Positions 1 through 33,220 of a stretch of DNA of 64,000 bases are shown here, piece by piece. This DNA comes from Hydrolagus colliei (taxonomy: Eukaryota): the NCBI GenBank assembly GCA_035084275.1, contig CM068762.1:6820001-6884000 (forward strand). The letters run 5' to 3'. The notes beneath the pieces were generated by a model. That model searched no databases and had not been told where the DNA came from. It saw only the letters and a program-made list of their open reading frames with translations. Each line of letters opens with the position of its first letter. The stretch's first letter is position 1. A program made the position numbers and the translations under genes.

Positions 1-3000
1 GAACTCGTGACTCCTTGAATGTTTCCTGGATTGAAAGCGATGGACGGAGGGATGACTATGTAATCCGTCTTCTGGACTTTGGGTCGAGCACAACGTTGAA
101 AGAAGCTGTCATTCGAAATGACTCTATAAACCATTCCTTTCAAAATTTGACGGCAGGGAAAAAATTTACTGTTGCCATTTTTACTAGAGCAGATCTATAC
201 AATTCAACAGTGGCCACTGCTACAGACTGGACATGTATGTATCTTTCAGATCCTTTTAATTCAGGTTTCTGCATTTATCTATTGCCGGACTGTAGAAATT
301 TTATCGTGTCCAACCAAAAAAGCCGTTTTCCATGTTTTATTATTGATGGTAAACAGAGAATATCCAAGTATTGACTGTTATGAAACAAATCTTCCCGGAC
401 AGTAAAAGCTGAGCATTTTGGTAGAGATCATGAGAAATTGGTTTCATGTTTTCTGTTCTATATAAATTATTGGAGCTATGTGCCACTATCAGCGAGCAGG
501 ACCCCAAATTCACATGAAAGAATGTTTCTTTGGTGGAGACTAATTGGATGAACAACTTTGCACAACTCTCTCTTAACTCTCTTTCTGCAGATCCATCGAC
601 AGCAATGAATTTGTCGATTGACAATACGAGATCGCCGAATACCTTGTGTGTTTTCTGGAATAAAAGTAATGGAGAAAGGGATGATTATATTATCAGTCTT
701 CAAGAGTTTCAATCATCAATCACGCTCCAAGAAACTGTCATTGGAAACGCGTCCATCGATCATTGCTTTCACCTTCTTGTGCCAGGCGTAAAATATTCAA
801 TTGGAATTATCGCAAGAGCTGGCCCATATAATTCCTCCATAGCAAATGATGCAGACACGACATGTAAGTGTGAATACGGTCTAATACTAGAATTGCAAAT
901 GACAATCTCGTCGCTGAAGCATTAAGGGTTTAACAACTAGTTGCGTAGGCAATTGGCTACAATGGATTAATAATAACTGACATGGTTGAAAGTGGCTTTA
1001 GAAGATAATGCATTGTTTACTACAAAGCAGCAGATCGAGGACGTGCTTTGAGATACTAGTATGAGCTTCAAAATACACTTGTCTTTCGATGGAAAGCTCA
1101 ATCAATTTGCAAACATCAGGACTCATTCTCACGTTTCCATCTCCAATGATGTCGTTAAATATGTTCACAAGTACCAACTTAGTGGAACTCACATTTATTT
1201 GCATCTTTACAGACCCTTCAAAACCAACCAACCTGACGCTTCAAAATAGTGGAACTCGTGACTCCTTGAATGTTTCCTGGATTGAAAGCGATGGACGGAG
1301 GGATGACTATGTAATCCGTCTTCTGGACTTTGGGTCGAGCACAACGTTGAAAGAAGCTGTCATTCGAAATGACTCTATAAACCATTCCTTTCAAAATTTG
1401 ACGGCAGGGAAAAAATTTACTGTTGCCATTTTTGCTAGAGCAGATCTATACAATTCAACAGTGGCCACTGCTACAGACTGGACATGTATGTATCTTTCAG
1501 ATCCTTTTAATTCAGGTTTCTGCATTTATCTATTGCCGGACTGTAGAAATTTTATCGTGTCCAACCAAAAAAGCCGTTTTCCAAGTTTTATTATTGATGG
1601 TAAACAGAGAATATCCAACTATTGACTGTTATGAAACAAATCTTCCCAGACAGTAAAAGCTGAGCATTTTGGTAGAGATCATGAGAAATTGGTTTCATGT
1701 TTTCTGTTCTATATAAATTATTGGAGCTATGTGCCACTATCAGCGAGCAGGACCCCAAATTCACATGAAAGAATGTTTCTTTGGTGGAGACTAATTGGAT
1801 GAACAACTTTGCACAACTCTCTCTTAACTCTCTTTCTGCAGATCCATCGACAGCAATGAATTTGTCGATTGACAATACGAGATCGCCGAATACCTTGTGT
1901 GTTTTCTGGAATAAAAGTAATGGAGAAAGGGATGATTATATTATCAGTCTTCAAGAGTTTCAATCATCAATCACGCTCCAAGAAACTGTCATTGGAAACG
2001 CGTCCATCGATCATTGCTTTCACCCTCTTGTGCCAGGCGTAAAATATTCAATTGGAATTATCGCAAGAGCTGGCCCATATAATTCCTCCATAGCAAATGA
2101 TGCAGACACGACATGTAAGTGTGAATACGGTCTAATACTAGAATTGCAAATGACAATCTCGTCGCTGAAGCATTAAGGGTTTAACAACTAGTTGCGTAGG
2201 GAATTGGCTACAATGGATTAATAATAACTGACATGGTTGAAAGTGGCTTTAGAAGATAATGCATTGTTTACTACAAAGCAGCAGATCGAGGACGTGCTTT
2301 GAGATACTAGTATGAGCTTCAAAATACACTTGTCTTTCGATGGAAAGCTCAATCAATTTGCAAACATCAGGACTCATTCTCACGTTTCCATCTCCAATGA
2401 TGTCGTTAAATATGTTCACAAGTACCAACTTAGTGGAACTCACATTTATTTGCATCTTTACAGACCCTTCAAAACCAACCAACCTGACGCTTCAAAATAG
2501 TGGAACTCGTGACTCCTTGAATGTTTCCTGGATTGAAAGCGATGGACGGAGGGATGACTATGTAATCCGTCTTCTGGACTTTGGGTCGAGCACAACGTTG
2601 AAAGAAGCTGTCATTCGAAATGACTCTATAAACCATTCCTTTCAAAATTTGACGGCAGGGAAAAAATTTACTGTTGCCATTTTTGCTAGAGCAGATCTAT
2701 ACAATTCAACAGTGGCCACTGCTACAGACTGGACATGTATGTATCTTTCAGATCCTTTTAATTCAGGTTTCTGCATTTATCTATTGCCGGACTGTAGAAA
2801 TTTTATCGTGTCCAACCAAAAAAGCCGTTTTCCATGTTTTATTATTGATGGTAAACAGAGAATATCCAACTATTGACTGTTATGAAACAAATCTTCCCGG
2901 ACAGTAAAAGCTGAGCATTTTGGTAGAGATCATGAGAAATTGGTTTCATGTTTTCTGTTCTATATAAATTATTGGAGCTATGTGCCACTATCAGCGAGCA

Positions 3001-6000
3001 GGACCCCAAATTCACATGAAAGAATGTTTCTTTGGTGGAGACTAATTGGATGAACAACTTTGCACAACTCTCTCTTAACTCTCTTTCTGCAGATCCATCG
3101 ACAGCAATGAATTTGTCGATTGACAATACGAGATCGCCGAATACCTTGTGTGTTTTCTGGAATAAAAGTAATGGAGAAAGGGATGATTATATTATCAGTC
3201 TTCAAGAGTTTCAATCATCAATCACGCTCCAAGAAACTGTCATTGGAAACGCGTCCATCGATCATTGCTTTCACCTTCTTGTGCCAGGCGTAAAATATTC
3301 AATTGGAATTATCACAAGAGCTGGCTCATATAATTCCTCCATAGCAAATGATGCAGACACGACATGTAAGTGTGAATACGGTCTAATACTAGAATTGCAA
3401 ATGACAATCTCGTCGCTGAAGCATTAAGGGTTTAACAACTAGTTGAGTAGGGAATTGGCTACAATGGATTAATAATAACTGACATGGTTGAAAGTGGCTT
3501 TAGAAGATAATGCATTGTTTACTACAAAGCAGCAGATCGAGGACGTGCTTTGAGATACTAGTATGAGCTTCAAAATACACTTGTCTTTCGATGGAAAGCT
3601 CAATCAATTTGCAAACATCAGGACTCATTCTCACGTTTCCATCTCCAATGATGTCGTTAAATATGTTCACAAGTACCAACTTAGTGGAACTCACATTTAT
3701 TTGCATCTTTACAGACCCTTCAAAACCAACCAACCTGACGCTTCAAAATATTGGAACTCGTGACTCCTTGAATGTTTCCTGGATTGAAAGCGATGGACGG
3801 AGGGATGACTATGTAATCCGTCTTCTGGACTTTGGGTCGAGCACAACGTTGAAAGAAGCTGTCATTCGAAATGACTCTATAAACCATTCTTTTCAAAATT
3901 TGACGGCAGGGAAAAAATTTACTGTTGCCATTTTTGCTAGAGCAGATCTATACAATTCAACAGTGGCCACTGCTACAGACTGGACATGTATGTATCTTTC
4001 AGATCCTTTTAATTCAGGTTTCTGCATTTATCTATTGCCGGACTGTAGAAATTTTATCGTGTCCAACCAAAAAAGCCGTTTTCCATGTTTTATTATTGAT
4101 GGTAAACAGAGAATATCCAACTATTGACTGTTATGAAACAAATCTTCCCGGACAGTAAAAGCTGAGCATTTTGGTAGAGATCATGAGAAATTGGTTTCAT
4201 GTTTTCTGTTCTATATAAATTATTGGAGCTATGTGCCACTATCAGCGAGCAGGACCCCAAATTCACATGAAAGAATGTTTCTTTGGTGGAGACTAATTGG
4301 ATGAACAACTTTGCACAACTCTCTCTTAACTCTCTTTCTGCAGATCCATCGACAGCAATGAATTTGTCGATTGACAATACGAGATCGCCGAATACCTTGT
4401 GTGTTTTCTGGAATAAAAGTAATGGAGAAAGGGATGATTATATTATCAGTCTTCAAGAGTTTCAATCATCAATCACGCTCCAAGAAACTGTCATTGGAAA
4501 CGCGTCCATCGATCATTGCTTTCACCTTCTTGTGCCAGGCGTAAAATATTCAATTGGAATTATCGCAAGAGCTGGCTCATATAATTCCTCCATAGCAAAT
4601 GATGCAGACACGACATGTAAGTGTGAATACGGTCTAATACTAGAATTGCAAATGACAATCTCGTCGCTGAAGCATTAAGGGTTTAACAACTAGTTGCGTA
4701 GGGAATTGGCTACAATGGATTAATAATAACTGACATGGTTGAAAGTGGCTTTAGAAGATAATGCATTGTTTACTACAAAGCAGCAGATCGAGGACGTGCT
4801 TTGAGATACTAGTATGAGCTTCAAAATACACTTGTCTTTCGATGGAAAGCTCAATCAATTTGCAAACATCAGGACTCATTCTCACGTTTCCATCTCCAAT
4901 GATGTCGTTAAATATGTTCACAAGTACCAACTTAGTGGAATTCACATTTATTTGCATCTTTACAGACCCTTCAAAACCAACCAACCTGATGCTTCAAAAT
5001 AGTGGAACTCGTGACTCCTTGAATGTTTCCTGGATTGAAAGCGATGGACGGAGGGATGACTATGTAATCCGTCTTCTGGACTTTGGGTCGAGCACAACGT
5101 TGAAAGAAGCTGTCATTCGAAATGACTCTATAAACCATTCTTTTCAAAATTTGACGGCAGGGAAAAAATTTACTGTTGCCATTTTTGCTAGAGCAGATCT
5201 ATACAATTCAACAGTGGCCACTGCTACAGACTGGACATGTATGTATCTTTCAGATCCTTTTAATTCAGGTTTCTGCATTTATCTATTGCCGGACTGTAGA
5301 AATTTTATCGTGTCCAACCAAAAAAGCCGTTTTCCATGTTTTATTATTGATGGTAAACAGAGAATATCCAACTATTGACTGTTATGAAACAAATCTTCCC
5401 GGACAGTAAAAGCTGAGCATTTTGGTAGAGATCATGAGAAATTGGTTTCATGTTTTCTGTTCTATATAAATTATTGGAGCTATGTGCCACTATCAGCGAG
5501 CAGGACCCCAAATTCACATGAAAGAATGTTTCTTTGGTGGAGACTAATTGGATGAACAACTTTGCACAACTCTCTCTTAACTCTCTTTCTGCAGATCCAT
5601 CGACAGCAATGAATTTGTCGATTGACAATACGAGATCGCCGAATACCTTGTGTGTTTTCTGGAATAAAAGTAATGGAGAAAGGGATGATTATATTATCAG
5701 TCTTCAAGAGTTTCAATCATCAATCACGCTCCAAGAAACTGTCATTGGAAACGCGTCCATCGATCATTGCTTTCACCTTCTTGTGCCAGGCGTAAAATAT
5801 TCAATTGGAATTATCGCAAGAGCTGGCTCATATAATTCCTCCATAGCAAATGATGCAGACACGACATGTAAGTGTGAATACGGTCTAATACTAGAATTGC
5901 AAATGACAATCTCGTCGCTGAAGCATTAAGGGTTTAACAACTAGTTGAGTAGGGAATTGGCTACAATGGATTAATAATAACTGACATGGTTGAAAGTGGC

Positions 6001-9000
6001 TTTAGAAGATAATGCATTGTTTACTACAAAGCAGCAGATCGAGGACGTGCTTTGAGATACTAGTATGAGCTTCAAAATACACTTGTCTTTCGATGGAAAG
6101 CTCAATCAATTTGCAAACATCAGGACTCATTCTCACGTTTCCATCTCCAATGATGTCGTTAAATATGTTCACAAGTACCAACTTAGTGGAACTCACATTT
6201 ATTTGCATCTTTACAGACCCTTCAAAACCAACCAACCTGACGCTTCAAAATATTGGAACTCGTGACTCCTTGAATGTTTCCTGGATTGAAAGCGATGGAC
6301 GGAGGGATGACTATGTAATCCGTCTTCTGGACTTTGGGTCGAGCACAACGTTGAAAGAAGCTGTCATTCGAAATGACTCTATAAACCATTCTTTTCAAAA
6401 TTTGACGGCAGGGAAAAAATTTACTGTTGCCATTTTTGCTAGAGCAGATCTATACAATTCAACAGTGGCCACTGCTACAGACTGGACATGTATGTATCTT
6501 TCAGATCCTTTTAATTCAGGTTTCTGCATTTATCTATTGCCGGACTGTAGAAATGTTATCGTGTCCAACCAAAAAAGCCGTTTTCCATGTTTTATTATTG
6601 ATGGTAAACAGAGAATATCCAACTATTGACTGTTATGAAACAAATCTTCCCGGACAGTAAAAGCTGAGCATTTTGGTAGAGATCATGAGAAATTGGTTTC
6701 ATGTTTTCTGTTCTATATAAATTATTGGAGCTATGTGCCACTATCAGCGAGCAGGACCCCAAATTCACATGAAAGAATGTTTCTTTGGTGGAGACTAATT
6801 GGATGAACAACTTTGCACAACTCTCTCTTAACTCTCTTTCTGCAGATCCATCGACAGCAATGAATTTGTCGATTGACAATACGAGATCGCCGAATACCTT
6901 GTGTGTTTTCTGGAATAAAAGTAATGGAGAAAGGGATGATTATATTATCAGTCTTCAAGAGTTTCAATCATCAATCACGCTCCAAGAAACTGTCATTGGA
7001 AACGCGTCCATCGATCATTGCTTTCACCTTCTTGTGCCAGGCGTAAAATATTCAATTGGAATTATCGCAAGAGCTGGCTCATATAATTCCTCCATAGCAA
7101 ATGATGCAGACACGACATGTAAGTGTGAATACGGTCTAATACTAGAATTGCAAATGACAATCTCGTCGCTGAAGCATTAAGGGTTTAACAACTAGTTGCG
7201 TAGGGAATTGGCTACAATGGATTAATAATAACTGACATGGTTGAAAGTGGCTTTAGAAGATAATGCATTGTTTACTACAAAGCAGCAGATCGAGGACGTG
7301 CTTTGAGATACTAGTATGAGCTTCAAAATACACTTGTCTTTCGATGGAAAGCTCAATCAATTTGCAAACATCAGGACTCATTCTCACGTTTCCATCTCCA
7401 ATGATGTCGTTAAATATGTTCACAAGTACCAACTTAGTGGAATTCACATTTATTTGCATCTTTACAGACCCTTCAAAACCAACCAACCTGATGCTTCAAA
7501 ATAGTGGAACTCGTGACTCCTTGAATGTTTCCTGGATTGAAAGCGATGGACGGAGGGATGACTATGTAATCCGTCTTCTGGACTTTGGGTCGAGCACAAC
7601 GTTGAAAGAAGCTGTCATTCGAAATGACTCTATAAACCATTCTTTTCAAAATTTGACGGCAGGGAAAAAATTTACTGTTGCCATTTTTGCTAGAGCAGAT
7701 CTATACAATTCAACAGTGGCCACTGCTACAGACTGGACATGTATGTATCTTTCAGATCCTTTTAATTCAGGTTTCTGCATTTATCTATTGCCGGACTGTA
7801 GAAATTTTATCGTGTCCAACCAAAAAAGCCGTTTTCCATGTTTTATTATTGATGGTAAACAGAGAATATCCAACTATTGACTGTTATGAAACAAATCTTC
7901 CCGGACAGTAAAAGCTGAGCATTTTGGTAGAGATCATGAGAAATTGGTTTCATGTTTTCTGTTCTATATAAATTATTGGAGCTATGTGCCACTATCAGCG
8001 AGCAGGACCCCAAATTCACATGAAAGAATGTTTCTTTGGTGGAGACTAATTGGATGAACAACTTTGCACAACTCTCTCTTAACTCTCTTTCTGCAGATCC
8101 ATCGACAGCAATGAATTTGTCGATTGACAATACGAGATCGCCGAATACCTTGTGTGTTTTCTGGAATAAAAGTAATGGAGAAAGGGATGATTATATTATC
8201 AGTCTTCAAGAGTTTCAATCATCAATCACGCTCCAAGAAACTGTCATTGGAAACGCTTCCATCGATCATTGCTTTCACCTTCTTGTGCCAGGCGTAAAAT
8301 ATTCAATTGGAATTATCGCAAGAGCTGGCCCATATAATTCCTCCATAGCAAATGATGCAGACACGACATGTAAGTGTGAATACGGTCTAATACTAGAATT
8401 GCAAATGACAATCTCGTCGCTGAAGCATTAAGGGTTTAACAACTAGTTGCGTAGGGAATTGGCTACAATGGATTAATAATAACTGACATGGTTGAAAGTG
8501 GCTTTAGAAGATAATGCATTGTTTACTACAAAGCAGCAGATCGAGGACGTGCTTTGAGATACTAGTATGAGCTTCAAAATACACTTGTCTTTCGATGGAA
8601 AGCTCAATCAATTTGCAAACATCAGGACTCATTCTCACGTTTCCATCTCCAATGATGTCGTTAAATATGTTCACAAGTACCAACTTAGTGGAATTCACAT
8701 TTATTTGCATCTTTACAGACCCTTCAAAACCAACCAACCTGACGCTTCAAAATAGTGGAACTCGTGACTCCTTGAATGTTTCCTGGATTGAAAGCGATGG
8801 ACGGAGGGATGACTATGTAATCCGTCTTCTGGACTTTGGGTCGAGCACAACGTTGAAAGAAGCTGTCATTCGAAATGACTCTATAAACCATTCTTTTCAA
8901 AATTTGACGGCAGGGAAAAAATTTACTGTTGCCATTTTTGCTAGAGCAGATCTATACAATTCAACAGTGGCCACTGCTACAGACTGGACATGTATGTATC

Positions 9001-12000
9001 TTTCAGATCCTTTTAATTCAGGTTTCTGCATTTATCTATTGCCGGACTGTAGAAATTTTATCGTGTCCAACCAAAAAAGCCGTTTTCCATGTTTTATTAT
9101 TGATGGTAAACAGAGAATATCCAACTATTGACTGTTATGAAACAAATCTTCCCAGACAGTAAAAGCTGAGCATTTTGGTAGAGATCATGAGAAATTGGTT
9201 TCATGTTTTCTGTTCTATATAAATTATTGGAGCTATGTGCCACTATCAGCGAGCAGGACCCCAAATTCACATGAAAGAATGTTTCTTTGGTGGAGACTAA
9301 TTGGATGAACAACTTTGCACAACTCTCTCTTAACTCTCTTTCTGCAGATCCATCGACAGCAATGAATTTGTCGATTGACAATACGAGATCGCCGAATACC
9401 TTGTGTGTTTTCTGGAATAAAAGTAATGGAGAAAGGGATGATTATATTATCAGTCTTCAAGAGTTTCAATCATCAATCACGCTCCAAGAAACTGTCATTG
9501 GAAACGCGTCCATCGATCATTGCTTTCACCCTCTTGTGCCAGGCGTAAAATATTCAATTGGAATTATCGCAAGAGCTGGCCCATATAATTCCTCCATAGC
9601 AAATGATGCAGACACGACATGTAAGTGTGAATACGGTCTAATACTAGAATTGCAAATGACAATCTCGTCGCTGAAGCATTAAGGGTTTAACAACTAGTTG
9701 CGTAGGCAATTGGCTACAATGGATTAATAATAACTGACATGGTTGAAAGTGGCTTTAGAAGATAATGCATTGTTTACTACAAAGCAGCAGATCGAGGACG
9801 TGCTTTGAGATACTAGTATGAGCTTCAAAATACACTTGTCTTTCGATGGAAAGCTCAATCAATTTGCAAACATCAGGACTCATTCTCACGTTTCCATCTC
9901 CAATGATGTCGTTAAATATGTTCACAAGTACCAACTTAGTGGAACTCACATTTATTTGCATCTTTACAGACCCTTCAAAACCAACCAACCTGACGCTTCA
10001 AAATAGTGGAACTCGTGACTCCTTGAATGTTTCCTGGATTGAAAGCGATGGACGGAGGGATGACTATGTAATCCGTCTTCTGGACTTTGGGTCGAGCACA
10101 ACGTTGAAAGAAGCTGTCATTCGAAATGACTCTATAATCTATTCCTTTCAAAATTTGACGGCAGGGAAAAAATATACTGTTGCCATTTTTGCTAGAGCAG
10201 ATCTATACAATTCAACAGTGGCCACTGCTACAGACTGGACATGTATGTATCTTTCAGATCCTTTTAATTCAGGTTTCTGCATTTATCTATTGCAGGACTG
10301 TAGAAATTTTATCGTGTCCAACCAAAAAAGCCGTTTTCCATGTTTTATTATTGATGGTAAACAGAGAATATCCAACTATTGACTGTTATGAAACAAATCT
10401 TCCCAGACAGTAAAAGCTGAGCATTTTGGTAGAGATCATGAGAAATTGGTTTCATGTTTTCTGTTCTATATAAATTATTGGAGCTATGTGCCACTATCAG
10501 CGAGCAGGACCCCAAATTCACATGAAAGAATGTTTCTTTGGTGGAGACTAATTGGATGAACAACTTTGCACAACTCTCTCTTAACTCTCTTTCTGCAGAT
10601 CCATCGACAGCAATGAATTTGTCGATTGACAATACGAGATCGCCGAATACCTTGTGTGTTTTCTGGAATAAAAGTAATGGAGAAAGGGATGATTATATTA
10701 TCAGTCTTCAAGAGTTTCAATCATCAATCACGCTCCAAGAAACTGTCATTGGAAACGCGTCCATCGATCATTGCTTTCACCTTCTTGTGCCAGGCGTAAA
10801 ATATTCAATTGGAATTATCGCAAGAGCTGGCCCATATAATTCCTCCATAGCAAATGATGCAGACACGACATGTAAGTGTGAATACGGTCTAATACTAGAA
10901 TTGCAAATGACAATCTCGTCGCTGAAGCATTAAGGGTTTAACAACTAGTTGCGTAGGGAATTGGCTACAATGGATTAATAATAACTGACATGGTTGAAAG
11001 TGGCTTTAGAAGATAATGCATTGTTTACTACAAAGCAGCAGATCGAGGACGTGCTTTGAGATACTAGTATGAGCTTCAAAATACACTTGTCTTTCGATGG
11101 AAAGCTCAATCAATTTGCAAACATCAGGACTCATTCTCACGTTTCCATCTCCAATGATGTCGTTAAATATGTTCACAAGTACCAACTTAGTGGAACTCAC
11201 ATTTATTTGCATCTATCTTTACAGACCCTTCAAAACCAACCAACGTGACGCTTCAAAATAGTGGAACTCGTGACTCCTTGAATGTTTCCTGGATTGAAAG
11301 CGATGGACGGAGGGATGACTATGTAATCCGTCTTCTGGACTTTGGGTCGAGCACAACGTTGAAAGAAGTTGTCATTCGAAATGACTCTATAATCCATTCC
11401 TTTCAAAATTTGATGGCAGGGAAAAAATATACTGTTGCCATTTTTGCTAGAGCAGATCTATACAATTCAACAGTGGCCACTGCTACAGACTGGACATGTA
11501 TGTATCTTTCAGATCCTTTAAATTCAGGTTTCTGCATTTATCTATTGCAGGACTGTAGAAATTTTATCGTGTCCAACCAAAAAAGCCGTTTTCCATGTTT
11601 TATTATTGATGGTAAACAAAGTATACCCAACTATTGACTGTTATGAAACAAATCTTCCAGGACAGTAAAAGCTGAGCATTTTGGGAGAGATCATGAGAAA
11701 TTGGTTTCATGTTTTCTGTTCTATATAAATTATTGGAGCTATGTGCCACTATCAGAGAGCAGGACCCCAAATTCACATGAAAGAATGTTTCTTTGGTGGA
11801 GACTAATTGGATGAACAACTTTGCACAACTCTCTCTTAACTCTCTTTCTGCAGATCCATCGACAGCAATGAATTTGTCGATTGACAATACGAGATCGCCG
11901 AATACCTTGTGTGTTTTCTGGAATAAAAGTAATGGAGAAAGGGATGATTATATTATCAGTCTTCAAGAGTTTCAATCATCAATCACGCTCCAAGAAACTG

Positions 12001-14502
12001 TCATCGGAAACGCGTCCATCGATCATTGCTTTCACCCTCTTGTGCCAGGCGTAAAATATTCAATTGGAATTATCGCAAGAGCTGGCCCATATAATTCCTC
12101 CATAGCAAATGATGCAGACACGACATGTAAGTGTGAATACGGTCTAATACTAGAATTGCAAATGACAATCTCGTCGCTGAAGCATTAAGGGTTTAACAAC
12201 TAGTTGCGTAGAGAATTGGCTACAATGGATTAATAATAACTGACATGGTTGAATGTGGCTTTGGAAGATAATGCATTGTTTACTACAAAGCAGCAGATGG
12301 AGGGCGTACTTTGAGATACTCGTATGAGCTTCAATATGCACTTGTCTTTCGATGGAAAGCTCAATCAATTTGCAAACATCAGGACTCATTCTCACATTTC
12401 CATCTCCAATGATGTCAATTAATATGTTCACAACTTAGTGGAACTCGGATTTATTTGTATCTTTACAGACCCTTCAAAACCAACCAACCTTAAACTTCAA
12501 AATAATGGAACTCGTGACTCCTTGTATGTTTCCTGGATTGAAAGCGATGGACGGAGGGATGACTATGTTATCCGTCTTCTGGACTTTGGGTCGAGCACAA
12601 TGTTGAAAGAAGCTGTCATTCGAAATGAATCTATAACCCATTCCTTTCAACATTTGACAGCAGGGAAAAAATATACCGTTGCCATTTTTGCTAGAGCAGA
12701 TCTATACAATTCAACAGTCGCCACTGCTACAGATTTGACATGTATGTATCTTTCAGCTCGTTTTAGTTAATGTTTCTGCATTGATCCATTACAAGATTGT
12801 CGGAAATTTTATAACATCCCTCCAAAAAACCCGTTTTCCATGCTATATTACAATTGCTGATGGGAAACAGAAAATATCCAATTATTGATTGTTATGAAAG
12901 AAATCTTCCAAGAAAGTCAAAGCTGAGCAGTTTGGTGGATACCATGACAAATTGATTTCTTGTTTTCTGTTCTGGATAAATTATTGGAGCTATGTGCCAC
13001 TATCAGCAAGCAGGATCCCAAATTTACATGAAAGAATGTTTCTTTCATGGAATCTGATTGGATGAACAACTTTGCACAACTCTCTTTTTACTCTCTTTCT
13101 GCAGATCCTTCCACAGCAATGAATTTGTCAATTGACAATATGAGATCGCCGGATACCTTGTGTGTTTTCTGGAATAAAAGTAATGGAGAAAGGGATGATT
13201 ATATTATCAGTTGTGAAGAGTTTGAATCAACAATCGCGCTCCAAGAAACCGTCATTGGAAACGCGTCCATCGATCATTGCTTTCGCCCTCTTGTGCCAGG
13301 CGTAAAATATTCAATTGGAATTATCGCAAGAGCTGGCCCATATAATTCCTCCAAAGCATATGATACAGACACGACTTGTAAGTTCGAATACGGTCTAATA
13401 CTAGAAATAGAAATGATAATCTCATCGCTGAAGCATTGAAGGTTCAACAAGATTTACTAGGATGGTGCCAGGATTGAGGGACTTCAGCTATGAGGAGAGG
13501 CTAGATAGGCTAGGGTTATTCTCTCTGGAGCAGAGAAGATTGAGGGGAGACCTAATAGAGGTTTATAAGATCATGAGGGGTTTCGACAGGGCAAATAGAG
13601 AAAAACTATTTCCACTCGTGGGTGAATCTGTGACTCGTGGTCACAGATTTAAAATAGTTTCAAGGCGAAGTAGAGGGGAGCTGAGGAGAAATTTTTTCAC
13701 TCAGCGAGTTGTTCGAATCTGGAATGCATTGCCTGAAAAGGTGGTGGAGGCTGATTCGATAACAACTTTTAAAAGGGAATTAGATCTTTATTTAGGGAGA
13801 ACGGGTCTATTAGGCTATGGGGAGCGGGCAGGGCAGTGGGATTGAATCGCTCTTTTCAAAGAGCCGGCACAGACTAGATGGGCCGAATGGCCTCCTTTTG
13901 TGCCGTAAAATTCTATGATTCTATGATTCTATGATTCTATGAATCTAGTTGTGTAGATATCTGGCTACATTGGATTGATAATAACTGACATGGTTGAAAG
14001 TGGCTTTTGAAGATAATGCGTTGTTTAATACAAACCAGCAGATCAAGGGCATTCTTTGAGATTCTAGTATGAGCTTCAATATACACTTGTCTTTTAATCA
14101 ATATGAATCAATTTAGTGAATTTACAAAAATCAGGACTCATTCTTACATTTCCATCTCTAATGATTTCCTCAATTTGTTCTGAAGTATCAACTTTGTGGA
14201 ACTCACATATATGTGTTTCTTTATAGATCCTTCAGAACCACTCAACCTGACTCTTGGAGATGATAAAGATGGTGAATCCTTGAATGTATCCTGGATTGAA
14301 GGCAACGGACGGAGGGATGACTATGTTATCTGTCTTCTTGACTTGGGAACGAACACAACATTGGAAGAAGAAGTCATTGGAAATGAATCTACAAACCATT
14401 TGTTTCAACATTTGAAACCAAATAAGAAATATACCGTTGCAGTTTTTGCGAGAGCTGATGGGTATAATTCAACTGCGGCCATTTTGATGGTCTCAATATC
14501 AA
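1..14502 (+). CDS. 23 phase-1 fibronectin type III exons, alternating type A and type B
   Basis: A exons: <1-234, 1213-1485, 2464-2736, 3715-3987, 4966-5238, 6217-6489, 7468-7740, 8719-8991, 9970-10242, 11225-11497, 12469-12741, 14227-14502. B exons: 591-863, 1842-2114, 3093-3365, 4344-4616, 5595-5867, 6846-7118, 8097-8369, 9348-9620, 10599-10871, 11854-12126, 13105-13377. All complete exons are 273 nt (the last is 276). Acceptors tttacag/ctgcag, donors gtatgt/gtaagt. FN3 pattern P..P.NL...L.V.W...G..D.Y.I...L..G.KY. Confidence 0.93.
1..14502. repeat. Intragenic tandem array, 1251-bp unit (273 exon A + 356 intron + 273 exon B + 349 intron), about 11.5 units visible, continuing past the left edge
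   Basis: Exact 1251-bp periodicity from base 1 to about 11210, also seen in the ORF track offsets. Units differ by a few substitutions. A 4-bp insertion lies near 11214 and divergence rises towards 14502. Confidence 0.98.
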
Positions 14503-17500
14503 GTATGTATAAATTTTTAGCAAATTTTAATGAATATACCTGCTATTCCCCATAACAATGTTTTTTATTGTTGCAAAATTGCACAATTTTTGCATATCAT
14601 ATTCGATTTGGTTATCGGATACATTGAATTTATTGACCGATTCAAGGCAAAGCTTGTAGAAAATTAAAAATAGAACATTTTGGTTCAGAGTACGGTGAAG
14701 TGGAATTGTAGAATTCTATTATATATCAAATTTTAAAGCTGTGCACCAGTATTTGCAAGCACTTGTTTAGTTGCCTTTAATTGCAATCTGAAAGTTTGAT
14801 CGCATTTAATTACATGCTGAAAATTTCAATTGAATTCCAATTGAATTCAGTCATACCTAATGCTCATACAAATGCACTAATGTTATCGTGGCAAATCAGA
14901 AATCAATGGATCTAGGTTTGCGTGTCTCCTCTTGCCAGCCTTGGGATATCCTCTCAATGTGAAAGGTGCTGTACAAGTGTAATGTTGTATTTCGTTTTGT
15001 AATTGTTGGAGAGTGAGCACTTGCCAGGAAGTGTGCTTGTGTTCAGTAACTCGTTTCATAAAGCTGTGTTCACTCCACCTCACCAAGCCACTCAGGATCA
15101 TCGGTGTCTTGTTCGAGCCTCCCCCATATCCATGCTGTGACCCACTCTGCCTTCCCTCAACTCCACAACATTGCCTGTCTTCGCCACTGCCTCAACCCTC
15201 AGGGTGCTGAAACATTCATTCATGCCTTCATCACATCCAGACTTGACTATGCTTGACTATTGGCTTCCCATCATTCAGAGGATTCAATTGAAGGTCCTGA
15301 TCCTCACCTTTAAAGACCTCCATGGCCTTACCCCAACCTCGTTCTGTGACCTCCTAAACACCTGCCAACCTGTCCGTTCCCTCCACTCAGAGAGCTCTGG
15401 CCTGCTCCATATTCCCCGACCCACCCGCTCCACCATTGGCGGGCGTGCCTTCAGCCACTCTGCCCCGAAGCTTTAGAATTCCATCCCACAATCCCTTTAC
15501 CTCACCCTCTCCCTAGCTATCTTCATGTCTTGCCTCAAGAACCTCCTCTTCAACTGTTCCATCGGACACCCTGCACTCTCCCACCCCCCCGCCCCTCTTC
15601 CTTCCATTCACTCCAACCACCCCGATCCTAGTTCACGTCTGAAACACTGACGGTCCAGCACCATGGAACGTCTTCCACACATGAAAGGCACTAAACAAAT
15701 GTAATTTTGTTGTTGTTGTTGTTTGGTCAAAGGCAGTGTTGTCAGTCTATAGCTCAGTGGTTGGAGCACTCGCCTTACAAGCAAAAGACCCGGGTTCAAT
15801 TCTAGGCAGGTTAGGGCGAAACCCTTACTCCACACACCTAAAAATAATCCCTCAAAAAACAAACAATAATAAATTAGTTATTTAAATCAACTGTTTGTGG
15901 GACACTGCTGTCTGCAACTGGTTACTGCATTTTGCCCATACATATACTCAATTCACTTTACAGTATATTCTGTGAAGTACTTTGAAACATCTAGAAGTCA
16001 TGAAAAGCGCTATATCAAATGCAAGGATTATTATTATTATTATTGTTATTGAATACTGTATTAGTCCGGATATATTGGATGAAACAGTCATTCTAAAGGA
16101 TTTACAATAATTTAAAGTATTCCCAATCTGGTTATGTTGCTGTGGAAAGAATCCAGGCAGGGTTTTACTGACAAAACTAAAATAGAATACAGGTTATATT
16201 GAGTGCTCCGATATGCTGCCCCACGTAAAGGGTGATATAATATATTACTAATAATAATCAACAAATAACAACAAATTACATTTATAGAGCGCCTTTCACG
16301 TTGGGAGGACATACCAAGGCGCTGATTTGATATCCTTGCATTTGATATCGCACTTTTCATGACTTCTGGACATCTCATATATATAAATGCAAGTTGTTAT
16401 TGAAATAGCACCTTTCACGTTTTGGAGGCTGTCTCAAAGTGCTTGATACAAGCTGGGAGTGGAAATTGAATGGGATGGGGTGGGGAGGGGAAGGATGACC
16501 TGAAGTGCAGTACATGAGATCTTTAAATGGACCTCAATCTGGTACAAAGACATTGACTCTCTCAAAATCCTTGCATTTGAAGAGCATCCCATCTGGCCAT
16601 GTCACATTCACACATTTTGTCTTTGATATCGGAGGCTGCAAACACAGTGAGGTCTCAAAAGGCCTCCAAAGTGAATTTATTCACAGCTCTTCTCACACAG
16701 ATTAATTAATTAATAGGAGTACAATCTACAATGACAAAGATTTCTTGATTCGTAACTAAGGATCTGCAAACTGTTGAAACATTGTTTGATAAATTGATTA
16801 TATGCCTAAAATGAAGATCTGCCCTTCATTAAAGCTCAGAAGAACATGACAACTGGGTCTTCAGATTCATGGTTCTTAACATTGTGGATGAAGCTGAGTA
16901 ACCATCTGGAACTTTGCTATAAGAGAGGAATGAGAATGCTGTGTACAATTTGTGTAAATGCTTCAGTGTATTCAAGAGGAAACTTAATGCATGCATGGGG
17001 GAAATGGGAAAATAGGTTGTAGGAGGTTTAGAAACATACTAATAGGTCTTGATGACTATACTGATTCTACATAATTATCAACTTAATGGAAACATCAAGA
17101 TCAATTGTTCAATCAACTATTAATTCCTACTTGATTTTTGGTATTTCACAGTTGCAGTTCCCGAATCCAATCCCATTTACTTCGTCTTGGCTGGAGCAGT
17201 AGGACTCCCAGTGTTATTTGTTGGCTATCTGCTATTCAAAAGAAAATGTTTGAAAAGGTAAATCATTTTTGTTAGGTCTGGTAGGTCTTGAGGCAGTGAG
17301 GGAACAAGTTGAGGAAGCGAGAGAGGGAGAGACGAAGGGAGGGAGGTTTGGGTGGGTGAGTAAGGGTAGGGTAGGGTGGATGACCTCAAACAGGAATCCT
17401 GAGCAAAGAGAACGAGTGGGTCAGTAGGGTTTGAATATCTTAAAGCATTACAAAAACAAAGAAAATCTAGCCCTGGTTCAAATTTCTACCCATAACTCTA

Positions 17501-20500
17501 CATAAAGGCAAACAGTAGTCTGGAGTTTCTCCCTCCTTTTATCTTGCCATAAAATTGGTCATTCACTTCACAAGATCAATATGGAGGAGGAGGGTCCTTC
17601 AGCCCTTCTGGTCTCATACTTCCAGAACACCCACATTACTGTCTATGCACCACAGCAGCACAAGCTGTTTTTAAAATGCGTCCTGTGTCCTGGCCACAAT
17701 CATGTACCTATTACGATTCATAGAAAAAAAATTTAGTCACTTTTTTCGAATGTTCATTTCATTAAAACAAATAATCTTTTTCTTTCTTACTAAAGCAAAG
17801 ATAACATGGATGATGAACTGTCAGATCATCCAAGGTAAGTATAAACAACAATGATTTGCCAACAATATCATGCTCTTCATGTAGGATGAAAGGATGAATA
17901 TCTCAAAGCACTCCAGAGTCAAAGACATGAATTTAAGGTGCAAGGAGGAGGAATTTGTGAGAGTTCCATAGAGTGAAGGAATTGTATCTGAAGCCTTGAC
18001 AATTGACAATGTGATGAAGGGAGTGTGGAATGAGCAACAGACGAGTGGAAGGCATGTGTGGGAGACTTGGGCTGTAGAACAGCAACAACAACTTGAACTT
18101 ATATAGCGCCCTGCACACCGGGTGGCATCCTAGAGCACCAAGGCTTGGAACTCCAAAGTGTGCATTGGCAGAATTGCTTTAAATTGAAACAGCAGATATC
18201 ACATAGCTTGCCATTGCAAGCATTCCAAACTTCCCGCTGCTTGGGAGTCTTGTAGCTCAGTGGTTAGAGCACTTGCCTTGCAAGCAAGAGACCTGGGTTC
18301 AATTCCAGACACGGCAAAACCTTGGGCAAGTTTCCTTACTACAGACGCCTGATAATAATCTCTCAAAACCAAACAATAATAAATTGGTTATTTCAATCTG
18401 CAGCTGTTTGTGGGACAATGCTGTCTGCAATTGCCCATATATATATATATATATATATATATACAGTCAATTCACTTTACAGTACTGTGAAGTGCTTTGA
18501 GATATCTAGAAGACATGAAAAGTGCTATATCAAATGCAACGATTATTACTATTATTATTATTATTGTCCAGCCTGGATCACCAGTTTGGGTTCTTGTTTT
18601 GCAAGCCAGTTGAAAGCACTTTATATTATAATCCTCTGACATGCCTTTCTCTTTCCAGCAATGAGTACCCTCCAGTCCAGATAGCAGACTTTGAGTCACA
18701 TTACCATAGGAAATCATCTAACTCCAATGAGGGCTTTTTGGAAGAATTTGAGGTAAATTGTTAATTTCTTTCCAGGATTAGATTAGAGATGCGTTTCATG
18801 CATTAGGTTAGACAGCTCATGGGGAGAGAAACAGATGAGCAATTTGTTCTGTGCTGTAGCATTGTATGATTCTCAATCAGGTCTGAAGACAAGGGTAAAT
18901 CACTGAGTGTGTTTGATTCAGCAACAGATTGGCACAAATATATGGAAGTGACAATGGAATAAAATTTACATTCATGTATCCCTTTCCACATTGGGTTGGT
19001 GTACCAAAGTATTTCACACTGCTGGCTAGGGACCCAAGACAGGTGGAGGTGGGTGGCAGGGGTGGGAAAGGGCGCAGTGTTGAACTGCTGAATAAATAAG
19101 TGTGGTGATGGCGGGAGTGGGACGGAGGTGACCAAAGTGTGGTCAATTAAGTAAGTCTTGAGGCACATTTTGAATTTAGGTAGGTAGGGGTTGAGATGCA
19201 GATACCCAGAAATTCAGTTCCAACGATCAGGGGCAGAATGTCATGTGAAATCACACTGCACAACACATAGAGAACAATAGACACTTACAGAGTTAACATG
19301 ATACAATACAATTTACATTTATACAACACCTTTCATATCAGTAAGACTTCTCAAGGTGCTTGACATCGCTGGCTGGGGAACAAGATGTGTAGCTTGAGTA
19401 TTGACTCCAATTGTTCAACAAGGCACTGACATGGTGAGATCTTTTCACTTCTCTTCAGTTTCGCCCACACAACACATAGTTGAAAGCACTTTACAATATA
19501 ATCTGTGAAGTACTTTTAAACATCTCAATAATGTCTAAGGCGCAATATCAAATGCAAAGATTATTATTATTATTTACAGAAACTGAAAGACGTTGGAAAA
19601 GATCAGTCAAGCAATATGGGCCTAATGATGTATAACAAGGTTAAAAACCGATACAGCAACATATTACCATGTAAGTAAAACTGATTCATTTTGACAAGTA
19701 CCAGCAAAGACCACGAGGATACAATGTAAACTAAGGATAGTGTAGAGATGCACACTTGAATTTCTAACAAAGGAAATTTAGTCGAAATAAGAAGTGTGAC
19801 ATTGCTCGTGACATGCGGTGCTGAAGACTACAGTTCAAACTTGGTAGATTCTTAATATTGATTTTTGTAGCAAACCTAGAATCAGGCTCCATCGTTTATT
19901 AGCTGAATCATTTTACTGCGGCACAATTAAAATGCAACACAGTTTACATTTATGAAGCGCCTTTCATGTGGGACAATTTTTCAATGGACATTACACAGCT
20001 AGCTGGGCACCCAAGCCAGGGAAGGGGGCGAAGCTGGAAAGAATGGGGTGAGGGATGCAGGAAAAATGACCAAAAACAAAGTTAAAGTCTTGAGGCAGCC
20101 TTCTAAAGAGGGAAGTTGAGGGAGGGGGTAGGGGGGGGGGGGGGGGGAGTGGTGAGGCAGATGTACTCCACGTTCAGGTTCTAGAGAATGGGGCAGAATG
20201 TCTGAAATTTCACCCACTTAGTGGTTCTCTGTGGTTAGAGAACCCGCCTCATAAGTGAGAGGACCTGGGTCAGATTCCTGGCAGGATGAATCATTGGGCA
20301 AGTTTCCTTAATCCACACGCCTCTGTTTACCTAGCAGTAATTGGGAGCCTGGTTGTTAGTCAATTGGAGGATTGCTTTTCAGGGGCTATCAATAACAAAC
20401 AACAGCAAAATTACATTTATAGATATGTTAATGATCTTGGAAAACTCTGTTCTCCATTGCTCTTAAGAACATCCTGCAGCCTTTCTGTCGATCGTGCAAG

Positions 20501-23500
20501 TTACCCTAACACTTCTCCATTCCTCAAAGTATGGTATAGGTCAGTACCTCTCTATTCCTGACAACCTATTCGCTGGAGTCGGGCGACTATTCTTACCCTG
20601 TCTTCTCACACGGATCAGATGAAAAGTATTCTACTAATTCTAGTGATGGTCTCGTAGCAGTTTGGTGATCCGGACATCAGCGGCAGACTGGAGATCTCGG
20701 CTTCCACCTCAAGGTCCTTCCCCAACTGCTGTGTCTATCTTCCCTCATGAACTATGTTTTAGATGCTTAGCAGCATCCAGGACAGTCGCCAGACTCCTAT
20801 CCTGTGACTGGATATCTGCCTAGTATCTCAGACCACGTATCCTTAATGTATATTTACTTATCCTTAGAAGGATTAGCTTAGAAGGACCCAGAAATGGGAT
20901 GGAACAAGAGCCACAGAATGATTTGAATATGAGTTTGAGAATTTTTTATTTGCTGTGTTGGGGGAATGTGATGAAATGACAAGAAGGACATTTTTGTAAT
21001 GAATAATAACTGTTTCTATTTAATTTACAGATGACTGGTCAAGAGTCAAACTGTCTGGGACATCATTGGAGCCAGGCCTGGATTATATTAATGCAAGCTT
21101 AATTCCTGTGAGTTGCCTTTTGCATTGGAACATTTCCGAATGTTCCTACACATCAGAGTTAATTTTGCTATATTTCTAAACAGGTTATGAAAAGAACTGG
21201 CTTGCCAATTAAGAATTTTAATTGCACTCTTAATGGGCCGCTCTGCACAATCTTAAGGAAAGGTGGTAGTCTTAAATCTAGGAGCAATTTTGGCAACACG
21301 GAAGGAATGTACTGTGTTGATTGCTGAGTTTCGGAGAATCAGAGCAACCACTTGTCTTCCAATATATTACTTTTTGCTATTCTTGTCTCTGAGTCACAAA
21401 GCTATGGGTTTTTACTCCCCGAATCGGGACTTAGTCTTGTGGTCGAGGCTGACATTCCAGTGCAGAATTGGGGTCTGCTACATTAGCTGAAGTGGAGGAG
21501 ATGAAGTTCCATCTGCCTGTATAGATGGGCAGCAAAGATCTTCCTATTCCTCATTCAAAAAGAGATGGGAATCTCTTCTTGTATCCTGGCTAACAGTCCC
21601 TTGGATGTATTGATCATGACTATTCTTGATTACAAAAGCAGTCTCTACTCTTGAAAACAATGACCCTCAAAGTACTTTGAGACACTTGGACATAATAAGG
21701 GTGTTTTTCTGTCATACTTGTTTCAACGGAACAGCCGCATTCTCGAAGGTTCCAGTTTCGCGGTCATTTGCAGATTGCACGTGACCATGGTAAGATGCAG
21801 GTGTAATTTCATGTTTCTGAGGCTTATGGCTCTGCACTAAATTGCTTACATTTGATTCATGAATGTAGGGTTGCCATTCAGGACCTGACTATATTGCTAC
21901 ACAAGGACCACTGAAAAATACCATCAATGATTTCTGGCAAATGGTTTGGGAGTATAACGCCTGTTGCATTGTGATGTTGACAAATCTAATTGAAAATAAC
22001 AAGGTAGGTTCATTCAAAGTGTTGAATGGGAATTTGGGGCGAAGTTTAAAATAGATGCCATTTTACGGTGTTAGTGCATAACACATTGACATGTGTTGCA
22101 AAGGTTACATTTATTATTACTATTATTTTAATGCATTTGCAGGTCAAATGTGAACAATACTGGTCTGCTAACAGGACACGCATTCAATTTGGACAGGTAC
22201 ATGTCAGTGTACTAAAAGTGAAAAAGTTTAAGGAATGGACTTCCACTGAAATGATGATTTCTCATGTAAGTGCAAAATATGCTCATTTTTGTAAGCATAA
22301 ATTCAATTGGATTCAAGTCAAACATGTATTCACATTGCCAAGCGTGTATACACATTGTCTTTACAAATGCTCAGCATAATTTAAGCAACTTGATGACAAG
22401 TTAATGATGTAAACCTGACACAGTTCATGGCACGCTCACAAATGATTCATAAGGTTACGTGACAATTGAAGTCACAAAGACGTACGCTGCAGTGCTTTGC
22501 TGATGGTTCACAGCATTGTTGGTGGTGCTGTTCTTCAGATGAGGCATTGAACTGAGGTCCCATCTGAATGTTCAAAAATAGAATGATATTGATAATAATA
22601 ATAATTTTTATTATTATAGCTCTTTTCAAAAACTTCCCTAGGTAATGTCGACCATTTACTTCATAAAAGTTTGTGGGCCTTTGCTTGCATAAATTGGCTG
22701 CTACGTTAAGAAACCAAGTGCACAGGCACTACACTTAACAGTAATACCTTTGAGACGTCCTCATGACGACCTCCGTGAATACGCGTGATACAAAATGCAA
22801 GGGTATTATTATTTACCTCGCGAGTGACGCAAATCGGATGCTCGCCCAACAATCCCATGACATCAATTGACTGGACATCAATTGGAAACAGGAATACAGC
22901 AGAAATTCTTTACTTTTCAAACAACTTTGAACTGATGTATAGTAATTGTTTTAACCTAGGAGAACATTAGGAAATACTTTAAGGATGACCTCAAATCTTT
23001 TACTTGAGAAGGAGAAAAAGAGAGGGCAAAACTACTACTATTAGAGATTTGGCAAACTATGTATCCTAAGAAAGACATTTGAATGCATACCACAAACTTG
23101 CTAATTATTTTTCCCTATAGACTAACAATAAAGCAGCCAGGACAATTTGGCATTACCAGTATGTGGCCTGGCCTGACAATGGAGTTCCTGAATCAATCAA
23201 TTCACTGGTTGACTTCACAGAAATGGTTAAAATGGCGACAGAGAATGTGAGAAACTCGGGACCTGTGGTGGTTCATTGCAGGTCGGTTTGGTTGAAGAAA
23301 ATCCTTCAGCTCATCTGATCTTACCCCTCCTCAAACCACCATCTCCCATCCCAGCAACTTTGAGCTGTTTTCTAAATGTGTTCAGGGTCCTGGCATCAAC
23401 CACCTTTCCTGGCATCAACCACCTTTCCTGGCAATTTGTTCCAATCATTGATTGCTCTCTGGGTATAGAAATACTTCCTGTTGTCTATTCTGAAATTCTT

Positions 23501-32500: not shown

Positions 32501-33220
32501 AGCTAAATCAAAGGACCTTGGTTTCAGCTTGTTTAACGTATTGGATATGATAGCATTCAGAAAAATCTTGTATTTATTCCTCTATCTGATCCAGGCACAT
32601 CATCAATGGAGGAGCTTTCAAGTATTCCAATCTCACCTTCCAGTATTCCAAACCAAAACCCCTTTGCTTCACCCCCCTCCCACTCCATGCTTTAAGATCC
32701 ATCTGTTCAATTGCAATTTGTGTCATCTACCTCCCACCCCTCCACCACCCCCACTCCCCATCCCTCTTCACTTTAGCCCCCAGCCCCCAAAGCATTGCCT
32801 TCCAGCTTGCAAAGCAATGTGCTTTGAGATATCCTCTCGATGCATTAATATAAATCGTTGCTATTGTTCACATACAACAGTTTAGCTGCTGAATAAGAAA
32901 TGTGTGGTTACTCCCAGTTAGTGTGTGGTAAATGAGTGGGTGTGAAGGGTTGGTTACACCTCATGGGTCTGCCAAGTCTTGATCAGACTTCCCAGCTCTT
33001 CTCCATCAGGGTTTAATATGCGGGAATGTTGTGAGGATCGATAGCAGTGATAATTCTGGCAATAATTGTCATTCTGCCTTGTTTTTCAAGCGCAGCCAAA
33101 AGGTGAATTGAAAATGAAACTAACATTCTCATGTTTTTTTTCTACTTCTTTTCTTAGGACCAGTACATATTCCTGCATGTGTGCCTCGGAAATATCCTTA
33201 CAAACCTATTGAACAACTAG
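1..33220 (+). CDS. PTPRV: Receptor-type protein tyrosine phosphatase, R3-like (PTPRV/OST-PTP-like), 5'-incomplete, 41 coding exons visible: at least 23 FN3 + TM + two PTP domains
   Basis: Manual splicing gives one open frame with compatible phases at all 40 introns and a TAG at 33218-33220. The RPTP call is firm. The PTPRV symbol is less certain and rests on the FN3-only visible ectodomain, two PTP domains and the position directly upstream of an LGR6-like gene on the same strand. Confidence 0.8.
13451..13944 (+). mobile_element. 5'-truncated CR1 LINE (ORF2 C-terminus, 3' UTR and tail) inserted in the last array intron
   Basis: ORF 13462-13845 ([30 protein letters not shown]...[16 protein letters not shown]) is typical of the CR1 ORF2 end, followed by an (ATTCTATG)n tail. 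It interrupts the array motif aacaa|ctagtt that is contiguous in the other units. Confidence 0.93.
15150..15721 (+). mobile_element. Degenerate L2 LINE 3' fragment
   Basis: Translates to [23 protein letters not shown]...[12 protein letters not shown]; ends in tail tgaaaggcact...aatgtaattttg(ttg)n. Left boundary approximate. Confidence 0.8.
15744..16049 (+). mobile_element. tRNA-derived SINE, near full length
   Basis: A box tagctcagtgg, B box ggttcaattc, core ctgtttgtgggacactgctg, tail gcgctatatcaaatgcaaggatt(att)n. Confidence 0.85.
17152..17257 (+). CDS. RPTP transmembrane exon
   Basis: tttcacag|...AAA AG|gtaaat, phase 1 to 2. Encodes [35 protein letters not shown]: 21 hydrophobic residues followed by a basic stop-transfer. 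Alternative in-frame acceptor at 17158. Confidence 0.88.
17796..17834 (+). CDS. RPTP 39-nt juxtamembrane mini-exon
   Basis: Pyrimidine tract then taaag|C AAA GAT...CCA AG|gtaagt, phase 2 to 2, encoding [13 protein letters not shown]. The AAG acceptor is weak. Confidence 0.65.
18245..18565 (+). mobile_element. tRNA-derived SINE, near full length
   Basis: Same head, core and tail as 15744-16049, with an internal (AT)n expansion. Confidence 0.85.
18659..24576 (+). CDS. PTP domain 1, 8 exons
   Basis: Exons 18659-18752, 19580-19670, 21031-21107, 21869-22003, 22143-22265, 23121-23281, 24008-24143, 24509-24576. Motifs [64 protein letters not shown]. Confidence 0.94.
19458..19573 (+). mobile_element. 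SINE 3' fragment abutting a splice acceptor
   Basis: gtttcgcccac...tctgtgaagtact...atatcaaatgcaaaga(tta)n followed directly by ttacag and the exon at 19580. Confidence 0.75.
23602..23911 (+). mobile_element. tRNA-derived SINE, near full length
   Basis: Same family head, core and tail. Confidence 0.82.
25218..33220 (+). CDS. PTP domain 2, 8 exons, ending at the stop codon
   Basis: Exons 25218-25308, 27712-27802, 28619-28695, 29872-30006, 30632-30754, 31159-31319, 32295-32430, 33158-33220. Motifs [64 protein letters not shown]; ends NLLNN-TAG. Confidence 0.94.
25925..26514 (+). mobile_element. L2 LINE 3' fragment
   Basis: [14 protein letters not shown]...[21 protein letters not shown]...[14 protein letters not shown], then after a frameshift [19 protein letters not shown]; (ttg)n tail. 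Confidence 0.9.
31885..32182 (+). mobile_element. Degenerate L2 3' fragment
   Basis: Similar to 26200-26514, including the tail tgaaggacactctagaagtataatttgttgttg. Confidence 0.6.

Follow-up and report, generated by a model that had tools for sequence, protein, structure and literature searches.

A two-exon FN3 repeat unit, homogenised introns included, in the ectodomain of a chimaera receptor tyrosine phosphatase that is probably PTPRV

Organisation of the repeat array

The DNA examined here (the window) is a stretch of 64,000 nucleotides from the chimaera Hydrolagus colliei (GenBank assembly GCA_035084275.1, contig CM068762.1, positions 6,820,001 to 6,884,000 of the forward strand). Its left end is occupied by a tandem array of exons for fibronectin type III (FN3) domains, which belongs to a receptor protein tyrosine phosphatase (PTP) gene, probably PTPRV. 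The period of the array was determined by comparing the window with itself using BLAST, and the FN3 domains were assigned with Pfam; Tandem Repeats Finder has a period limit of 500 and is blind to the 1251-bp array. The period begins at position 1 and fades at about 14.5 kb. Each unit is made up of exon A (273 bp), intron A (356 bp), exon B (273 bp) and intron B (349 bp), and each exon, A or B, is a single FN3 domain on a phase 1-1 exon. Exons A and B are 47% identical to each other. The window contains 23 FN3 exons, ie 21 full exons of 273 bp, the cut copy A0 and the 276-bp A11.

1-11224, + strand: core array of 1251-bp units, U0-U8, extending past the left edge; 98.7-100% identical to the core consensus in 300-bp bins over 8501-11200
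1213-1485, + strand: FN3 exon A (example), phase 1-1, Pfam fn3 E = 1.3e-8; further exon A copies start at 2464, 3715, 4966, 6217, 7468, 8719, 9970, 11225 and 12469 (+), with a cut copy at 1-234
591-863, + strand: FN3 exon B (example), phase 1-1, Pfam fn3 E = 2.3e-5; further exon B copies start at 1842, 3093, 4344, 5595, 6846, 8097, 9348, 10599, 11854 and 13105 (+)
11225-12468, + strand: unit U9, partly homogenised, about 97% identical to the core
12469-14226, + strand: edge unit U10, with exon A10 at 12469-12741 and exon B10 at 13105-13377
13451-13944, + strand: 3' fragment (494 bp) of a long interspersed nuclear element (LINE) in intron B of U10, with the end of an open reading frame and a (ATTCTATG)n tail
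14227-14502, + strand: last FN3 exon, A11, 276 bp, Pfam fn3 E = 9.5e-10, 61% identical to the core A protein

A first-pass annotation of the same sequence had described two-exon units of 1251 bp only a few substitutions apart, with introns as homogeneous as the exons and no stop or frameshift in any exon, and these points were borne out. Pairwise substitutions number 1-11 among the core units U0-U8, 31-36 for U9 and approximately 135-145 for U10. Nucleotide diversity (pi) is 0.0068 in the exons (11 of 546 sites variable) and 0.0041 in the introns (9 of 705; Fisher p = 0.37), ie the introns of the array are at least as homogeneous as its exons. Each of the 21 full-length exons (273 bp) is bounded by AG/GT and is free of stops. 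The annotation had placed the array at 1 to 12,200; the repeat is as described, but the end point is not, since the degenerating array reaches 14502. A search for homologues using exon A gave no match.

Concerted evolution of the units

Unit 2027-3277 was compared with the public contigs of 4 of 13 runs, in which X1 and X5 are this species and X6 is organism B, and the species comparison covered 40 of the 123 variant sites. At 30 of these 40 sites (18 intronic, 12 exonic) another letter is carried at ≥85% of organism B depth. All but one of the 30 organism B letters (29) are found in none of U0-U8, and 23 are present in the window's own edge units, U9-U11. The core's own letters may have spread through all its units after the species split, or the edge may have kept what the core lost; on either account the fixed differences of organism B and the survivals at the edge indicate that the copies evolve together, introns as well as exons. 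The same relation is seen with Callorhinchus milii, in which the A copies are 92% and the B copies 89% alike, and are 63% (A) and about 51% (B) identical to those of the window (range 50-63%; row B10 was left out of the pairwise identities). The A-B unit is old and its copies are young. In introns and exons alike, copies thus resemble those of their own species more than those of the other, which is the mark of concerted evolution.

Exchange between copies is combined with divergence that grows toward the end of the array, of which the window contains the right one. There, identity to the core falls from 99-100% to 97%, then to 91% (exon) and 83% (intron), and finally to 78%. Four gametes were found in 8 of 21 informative pairs of sites. 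The segment 3314-5755 (+) is the same as the sequence 2502 bp downstream except for one base; identical runs of 738 and 1701 bases occur at lag 2502, the longest at lag 1251 being 945. It looks as if two units were recently duplicated or converted here. Similarity between U8 and U9 is patchy (exon B 99%, introns 97%). The pattern is such as unequal crossing-over and gene conversion, the likely mechanism, would leave, and we have little doubt that the units are homogenised within the species. The suggestion in the first-pass annotation that concerted evolution is ongoing is thus supported by the species-wide fixed differences, the edge gradient and the four-gamete conflicts. Its other suggestion, a very recent expansion and nothing more, is less favoured, since Callorhinchus has the A-B unit too and the core is flanked by diverged edge copies. 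In the FN3 repeats of three tetrapod PTPRV proteins the median identity is 32-35% and none of 246 pairs exceeds 80%; these repeats are not homogenised.

Array length in independent contigs

The head-to-tail joint of the unit is present in independent contigs of all four runs. In X1 the unit is a single circular contig of 1281 bp with a depth of 660 and zero differences, and the edge-unit contigs have depths of 32.5 and 42.8. The corresponding values in X5 are 1114-1177 for the unit and 54.3 and 68.2 for the edge-unit contigs, and in X6 868-1125 and 58.6. The core/edge depth ratio, calculated from contig means and so a rough guide and not a copy number, is 20.3 and 15.4 in X1, 16.3-21.7 in X5 and 14.8-19.2 in X6. 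Since 91% of the 31-mers of the array match the consensus, the X1 ratio is an underestimate by about 9%. These ratios suggest roughly 15-22 units in this species and 15-19 in organism B, which in turn suggests 35-45 FN3 domains, or about 40. The earlier figure of at least 23 domains holds as a minimum, depth suggesting about 20 units. In the cleanest control the ratio was 20.3 in sample S1 and 20.5-21.7 in sample S2, the two being possibly one animal. By contig depth, no large difference in length was seen between S1 and S2, nor between these and organism B.

Gene model and phosphatase domains

The array is followed by exons for a transmembrane (TM) segment and two PTP domains, D1 and D2. The complete model has 41 exons and 2715 aa with one terminal stop, and all its splice sites are AG/GT.

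17152-17257, + strand: TM exon, a hydrophobic stretch then basic residues; order as in Callorhinchus P0009
17796-17834, + strand: short juxtamembrane exon after the TM exon
18659-24576, + strand: PTP D1, eight exons (18659-18752, 19580-19670, 21031-21107, 21869-22003, 22143-22265, 23121-23281, 24008-24143, 24509-24576), all four catalytic motifs
25218-33220, + strand: PTP D2, eight exons (25218-25308, 27712-27802, 28619-28695, 29872-30006, 30632-30754, 31159-31319, 32295-32430, 33158-33220 including the stop), all four catalytic motifs

D2 has its own wedge-like first exon, and its exon lengths of 91, 77, 135, 123, 161 and 136 are as in D1. Catalytic motifs were scored with strict patterns for the pTyr loop, WPD, CX5R and the Q-loop. 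All four are present in each of the four chimaera PTP domains (D1 and D2 of two species) and none in the D2 of tetrapod PTPRV (0/4 in 7 of 7), and none of the 16 other D2 domains scored has WPD. The roles of the motifs have been described, and 12 of 21 human receptor PTPs have a pseudophosphatase D2 (10.1101/805119). Both D1 and D2 are predicted from their motifs to be active. D2 is also more conserved with Callorhinchus (81%) than is D1 (77%).

The idea that two active domains are unique to chimaeras was rejected. Among 308 proteins with a long PTP span, 10 non-chimaera proteins have at least two active-like sites; P0172, P0176, P0026 and P0039 of these look like fused gene models and P0015 is from a mollusc. 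The remaining proteins with at least two such sites are P0017, P0033, P0075, P0127 and P0040. In the PTPRV-like D1 of axolotl (P0025, residues 1990-2280) serine replaces the catalytic cysteine, and both PTP domains of that protein may be inactive.

Identity of the gene

The orthologue in Callorhinchus milii is XP_007892481, with identities of 88% on one exon, 77% in D1 and 81% in D2. The closest named matches of both PTP domains are tetrapod PTPRV D1 domains (47-53%). Trees were built from 24 and 18 domains chosen from 322 proteins, leaving out redundant isoforms and the long-branched pig D2; for the 18-domain tree six non-chimaera D2 rows were also left out and a mixture model was used, and PTPRO and PTPRQ are in neither tree. 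The chimaera D1 and D2 fall with the PTPRV clade, and not with PTPRB, PTPRJ or PTPRH, with support of 99/94 (24 domains) and 88/91 (18 domains, mixture model), within an R3 clade supported at 100/100. A grouping of the chimaera domains with PTPRB was rejected (approximately unbiased test, p-AU 0.005 and 0.012). The PTPRB domain used, the second domain of P0039, is genuine, as it scores 470 bits to human PTPRB and 288 to PTPRJ. When single exons were searched against solved structures, two-domain chains dominated, and PTPRB lay below PTPRJ.

The part of the gene in the window has the layout of PTPRV, ie an FN3-only ectodomain, a single TM segment and two tandem PTP domains. Like other R3 receptors it combines phase 1-1 FN3 exons with an R3-type catalytic domain. 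It departs from the single cytoplasmic PTP domain of the canonical R3 receptors (PTPRB/J/H/O/Q), two such domains lying in frame both in the window and in Callorhinchus. The gene order around PTPRV is PTPN7-PTPRV-LGR6, and an LGR-type gene lies 14.5 kb downstream of the PTP gene.

47769-47954, + strand: first exon of an LGR-type gene, encoding a signal peptide and an LRRNT domain (E = 4.8e-8)

LGR6 and PTPRV are reported to be co-located in human (10.1101/828525) and in chicken (PMC7379350). From sequence and gene order combined, it is likely that the gene is PTPRV/OST-PTP.

Selection on the repeats and the stalk

Nonsynonymous to synonymous changes (N:S) number 8:3 among core variants, 23:11 between edge and core and 10:2 among the listed species differences, against 415:125 sites. 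No departure from neutral N:S was found in the two comparisons tested (p = 0.72 and p = 0.22). Relative to U1, U8-U10 have eight intronic indels and no exonic one. U10 by itself has six indels in its introns and zero in its exons, and is approximately 91-92% (exons) and 82-83% (introns) identical to the core. Identity with Callorhinchus is 50-63% in the FN3 domains, compared with 77-81% in the PTP domains. The frame and fold of the FN3 domains are apparently kept while their residues drift.

A straight FN3 chain rises 3.5-4 nm per domain, and at this rise the stalk would be about 140-160 nm long if straight. It is rich in sequons, with 106 in 2081 aa, or about five per FN3 domain. Size exclusion has been proposed for CD148 (PMC10815196), and by analogy a glycosylated spacer is the likeliest role of the stalk, to which we would give about an even chance. 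Homophilic or multivalent ligand binding may be another. Exon B (591-863 and other copies) encodes two cysteines which are absent from the Callorhinchus B domains; they may form a disulfide peculiar to this lineage that has spread across the array.

Comparison with known systems

Tetrapod PTPRV (OST-PTP, Esp) was represented by alligator P0016, axolotl P0025, pig P0090 and the birds P0197 and P0021. These share with the chimaera gene an FN3-only ectodomain with W4G4Y loops, one TM segment and two tandem R3-type PTPs; their catalytic domains are in one clade with those of the chimaera, and an LGR neighbour may be common to both. They differ in having divergent FN3 domains (median 32-35%), 7-16 of them detected per protein, the PF18861 domain, and a D2 without any of the four motifs, whereas the chimaera gene has an estimated 40 or so homogenised FN3 domains, no PF18861 and an intact D2. 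The Callorhinchus protein (P0009/P0001, 'PTP alpha-like') has FN3 domains in the order A-B-A-B-A', a TM segment and an intact D1 and D2, as in the window gene; it is named after PTPRA, and its model contains five FN3 domains in version.1 and none in version.2. The TM and FN3 portion of the older version (1113 aa) is missing from the newer RefSeq model (568 aa). The Callorhinchus model is likely to have been truncated at a collapsed array.

Like the chimaera gene, PTPRB has one FN3 domain per phase 1-1 exon and the W4G4Y loop code (PMC5336234). The R3 receptor PTPs as a group (PTPRB, PTPRJ/CD148, PTPRH, PTPRO, PTPRQ) have R3-type catalytic domains as in the chimaera but are defined by a single PTP domain (PMC5336234), and the human members have 7-18 FN3 domains (PMC10815196). 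The repeat unit of Argiope MaSp2 likewise consists of two exons and two alternating homogenised introns, for which unequal crossing-over was proposed, and its authors were aware of no further case of this alternation in eukaryotes (PMC9779670). MaSp2 is a secreted, low-complexity silk, whereas the chimaera array encodes folded domains of a vertebrate signalling receptor. Homogenised exon-intron arrays have also been described for tenascin-X and for lamprey TN50 (PMC11401434); unlike the chimaera gene, tenascin FN3 arrays belong to matrix proteins without a catalytic domain. A literature search, with most subscription journals outside its reach, found no description of the array or of a cartilaginous-fish PTPRV.

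Interpretation and rival explanations

We consider it likely that the array codes for the ectodomain of a receptor tyrosine phosphatase of the chimaera, probably PTPRV, in which a two-exon FN3 unit is homogenised within each species and would form a very long, heavily glycosylated stalk above two PTP domains predicted to be active. With symmetric phase 1-1 exons, a whole unit could be added or removed without disturbing the frame, so that misaligned exchange would be tolerated and would sweep the introns along with it. Edge units would pair less often, and so would drift and gather indels and the LINE. Selection may bear less on the identity of the residues than on the frame, the fold and, perhaps, the total length, the exon changes being near neutral N:S. 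With about 40 FN3 domains and about five sequons in each, the stalk could be a size or spacer element which places the phosphatase at close cell contacts or excludes it from them, as suggested for CD148. The double-active cytoplasmic part would be a possible state from which the D2 of tetrapod PTPRV decayed. A stronger version, which we offer tentatively and doubt somewhat more than we believe, is that chimaeras keep an ancestral PTPRV, with both PTP domains working as they did before D2 decayed into a pseudophosphatase. Its stalk, with about 40 FN3 domains, would have more than double the length of the longest human R3 ectodomain; across species it would stay near 15-20 units while concerted evolution freely turns over its sequence, ie a molecular ruler selected for size and not for sequence.

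Several points weigh against these conclusions. The window does not reach the 5' end of the gene or its upstream neighbours. The depth estimates come from contig means and not from true copy number, and the comparison took in 4 of 13 runs, 40 of 123 variant sites and 28 of 239 pieces. If a single unit were amplified again and again, the pattern would be much like that of continuous exchange. The single PTPRB domain in the trees comes from a fused gene model (P0039), and descent of D2 as orthologue of the tetrapod D2 was not separated from an independent duplication (p-AU 0.156 both). The juxtamembrane domain PF18861 is in all three of three tetrapod PTPRVs and is missing in Callorhinchus P0009, whose exon order is that of the window; PF18861 and a degenerate D2 are typical of tetrapod PTPRV, PF18861 not being known as a defining feature. 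Finally, the best solved-structure match of the LGR exon is LGR5 and not LGR6.

That the assembly has falsely expanded a few units, which the first-pass annotation named as one finding that would overturn its account, is so improbable as to be negligible. The units are near-identical, and a false duplication at this one place might account for the two-unit duplicate, which has a single mismatch, but the core contigs are 15-22 times as deep as the edge contigs in two samples, which is above the ten units of the window, and variant 813 makes up 36% of the depth in X5 (434.7 of 1218) and is in 3 of the 10 units here. A true coding variable-number tandem repeat with wide length polymorphism, possibly under balancing selection, is fairly unlikely; the annotation had inferred that ectodomain length is probably polymorphic among individuals. 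In-frame, symmetric units and traces of recombination would ease the gain and loss of whole units, and the depth ratio of organism B is somewhat lower; S1 and S2 are nearly equal, however, and no wide length variation was seen in their contig depth, which averages two alleles and may come from one animal. Small variation in length is likely. Episodic re-amplification, in which one unit per lineage is copied in a burst that displaces the older ones (birth and death) and units otherwise exchange little, is more improbable still. The youth of the core units (pi 0.004-0.007) and the steep step from U8 to U10 speak for it, and species-specific fixation would also follow, but the four-gamete pairs, the two-unit duplicate and the patchiness of U8-U9 point to continuing exchange, and this species and organism B have similar numbers of copies.

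The remaining alternative concerns the name of the gene and leaves the reading of the array unaffected. The gene would be an R3 paralogue peculiar to chimaeras, with an independent duplication of its PTP domain, as the absence of PF18861, the unrejected clade of chimaera D1 and D2, the modest support for the PTPRV clade in the mixture tree and the overlapping phmmer scores (284-322 for PTPRV D1 and 295-298 for human PTPRB) would allow. Against it, a genuine PTPRB scores far higher to human PTPRB (470 bits), the two-domain layout and the start of D2 resemble PTPRV, an LGR gene lies directly downstream, and PTPRV and LGR6 are co-located in human and chicken. We regard the paralogue as improbable.

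If the gene is PTPRV, as we favour, its range likely extends to cartilaginous fish. PTPRV is a bone and metabolism phosphatase in mice and a pseudogene in humans (PMC8799702). The array is a clean example, in a vertebrate, of concerted evolution inside a gene. It has polarity, as ancestral letters are kept in the edge units, and its homogenised introns alternate in the way known earlier from spider silk genes. With D2 intact here and degenerate in tetrapod relatives, the route from enzyme to pseudoenzyme is open to direct test, and the naturally modular stalk offers a test case for size-exclusion models of R3 phosphatases.

Stops and transposable elements

The first-pass annotation had remarked that the array is free of transposable elements. 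This is correct for the core, whose introns match nothing elsewhere (no match of either intron in 14601-64000 at E ≤ 0.01, a region in which 16.6% of bases are repeated in 41 blocks, two of them PTP exon-exon matches); it fails in the last unit, just beyond the limit given for the array, where the 494-bp LINE lies. Neither the lack of stops nor the lack of such elements was accepted as a sign of special selection. The chance of finding no stop among the 11 core exon changes is 0.65, and repeats elsewhere have a median identity of 75%, which makes them far older than the units. An absence of elements is to be expected in units that are young and repeatedly overwritten and have short introns. 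Neither absence needs a special cause. The only young LINE of the array sits in U10, the unit that escaped homogenisation.

That fragment, probably of the CR1 type, has an inverted copy at 40936-41114 which is 98.9% alike over 179 bp, and the family looks recently active. A second repeat, of about 300 bp, is abundant in the window (15750-16051, 18244-18566, 23603-23915 and many more); it has a tRNA-like start and an (ATT)n tail, and its copies are 73-82% alike.

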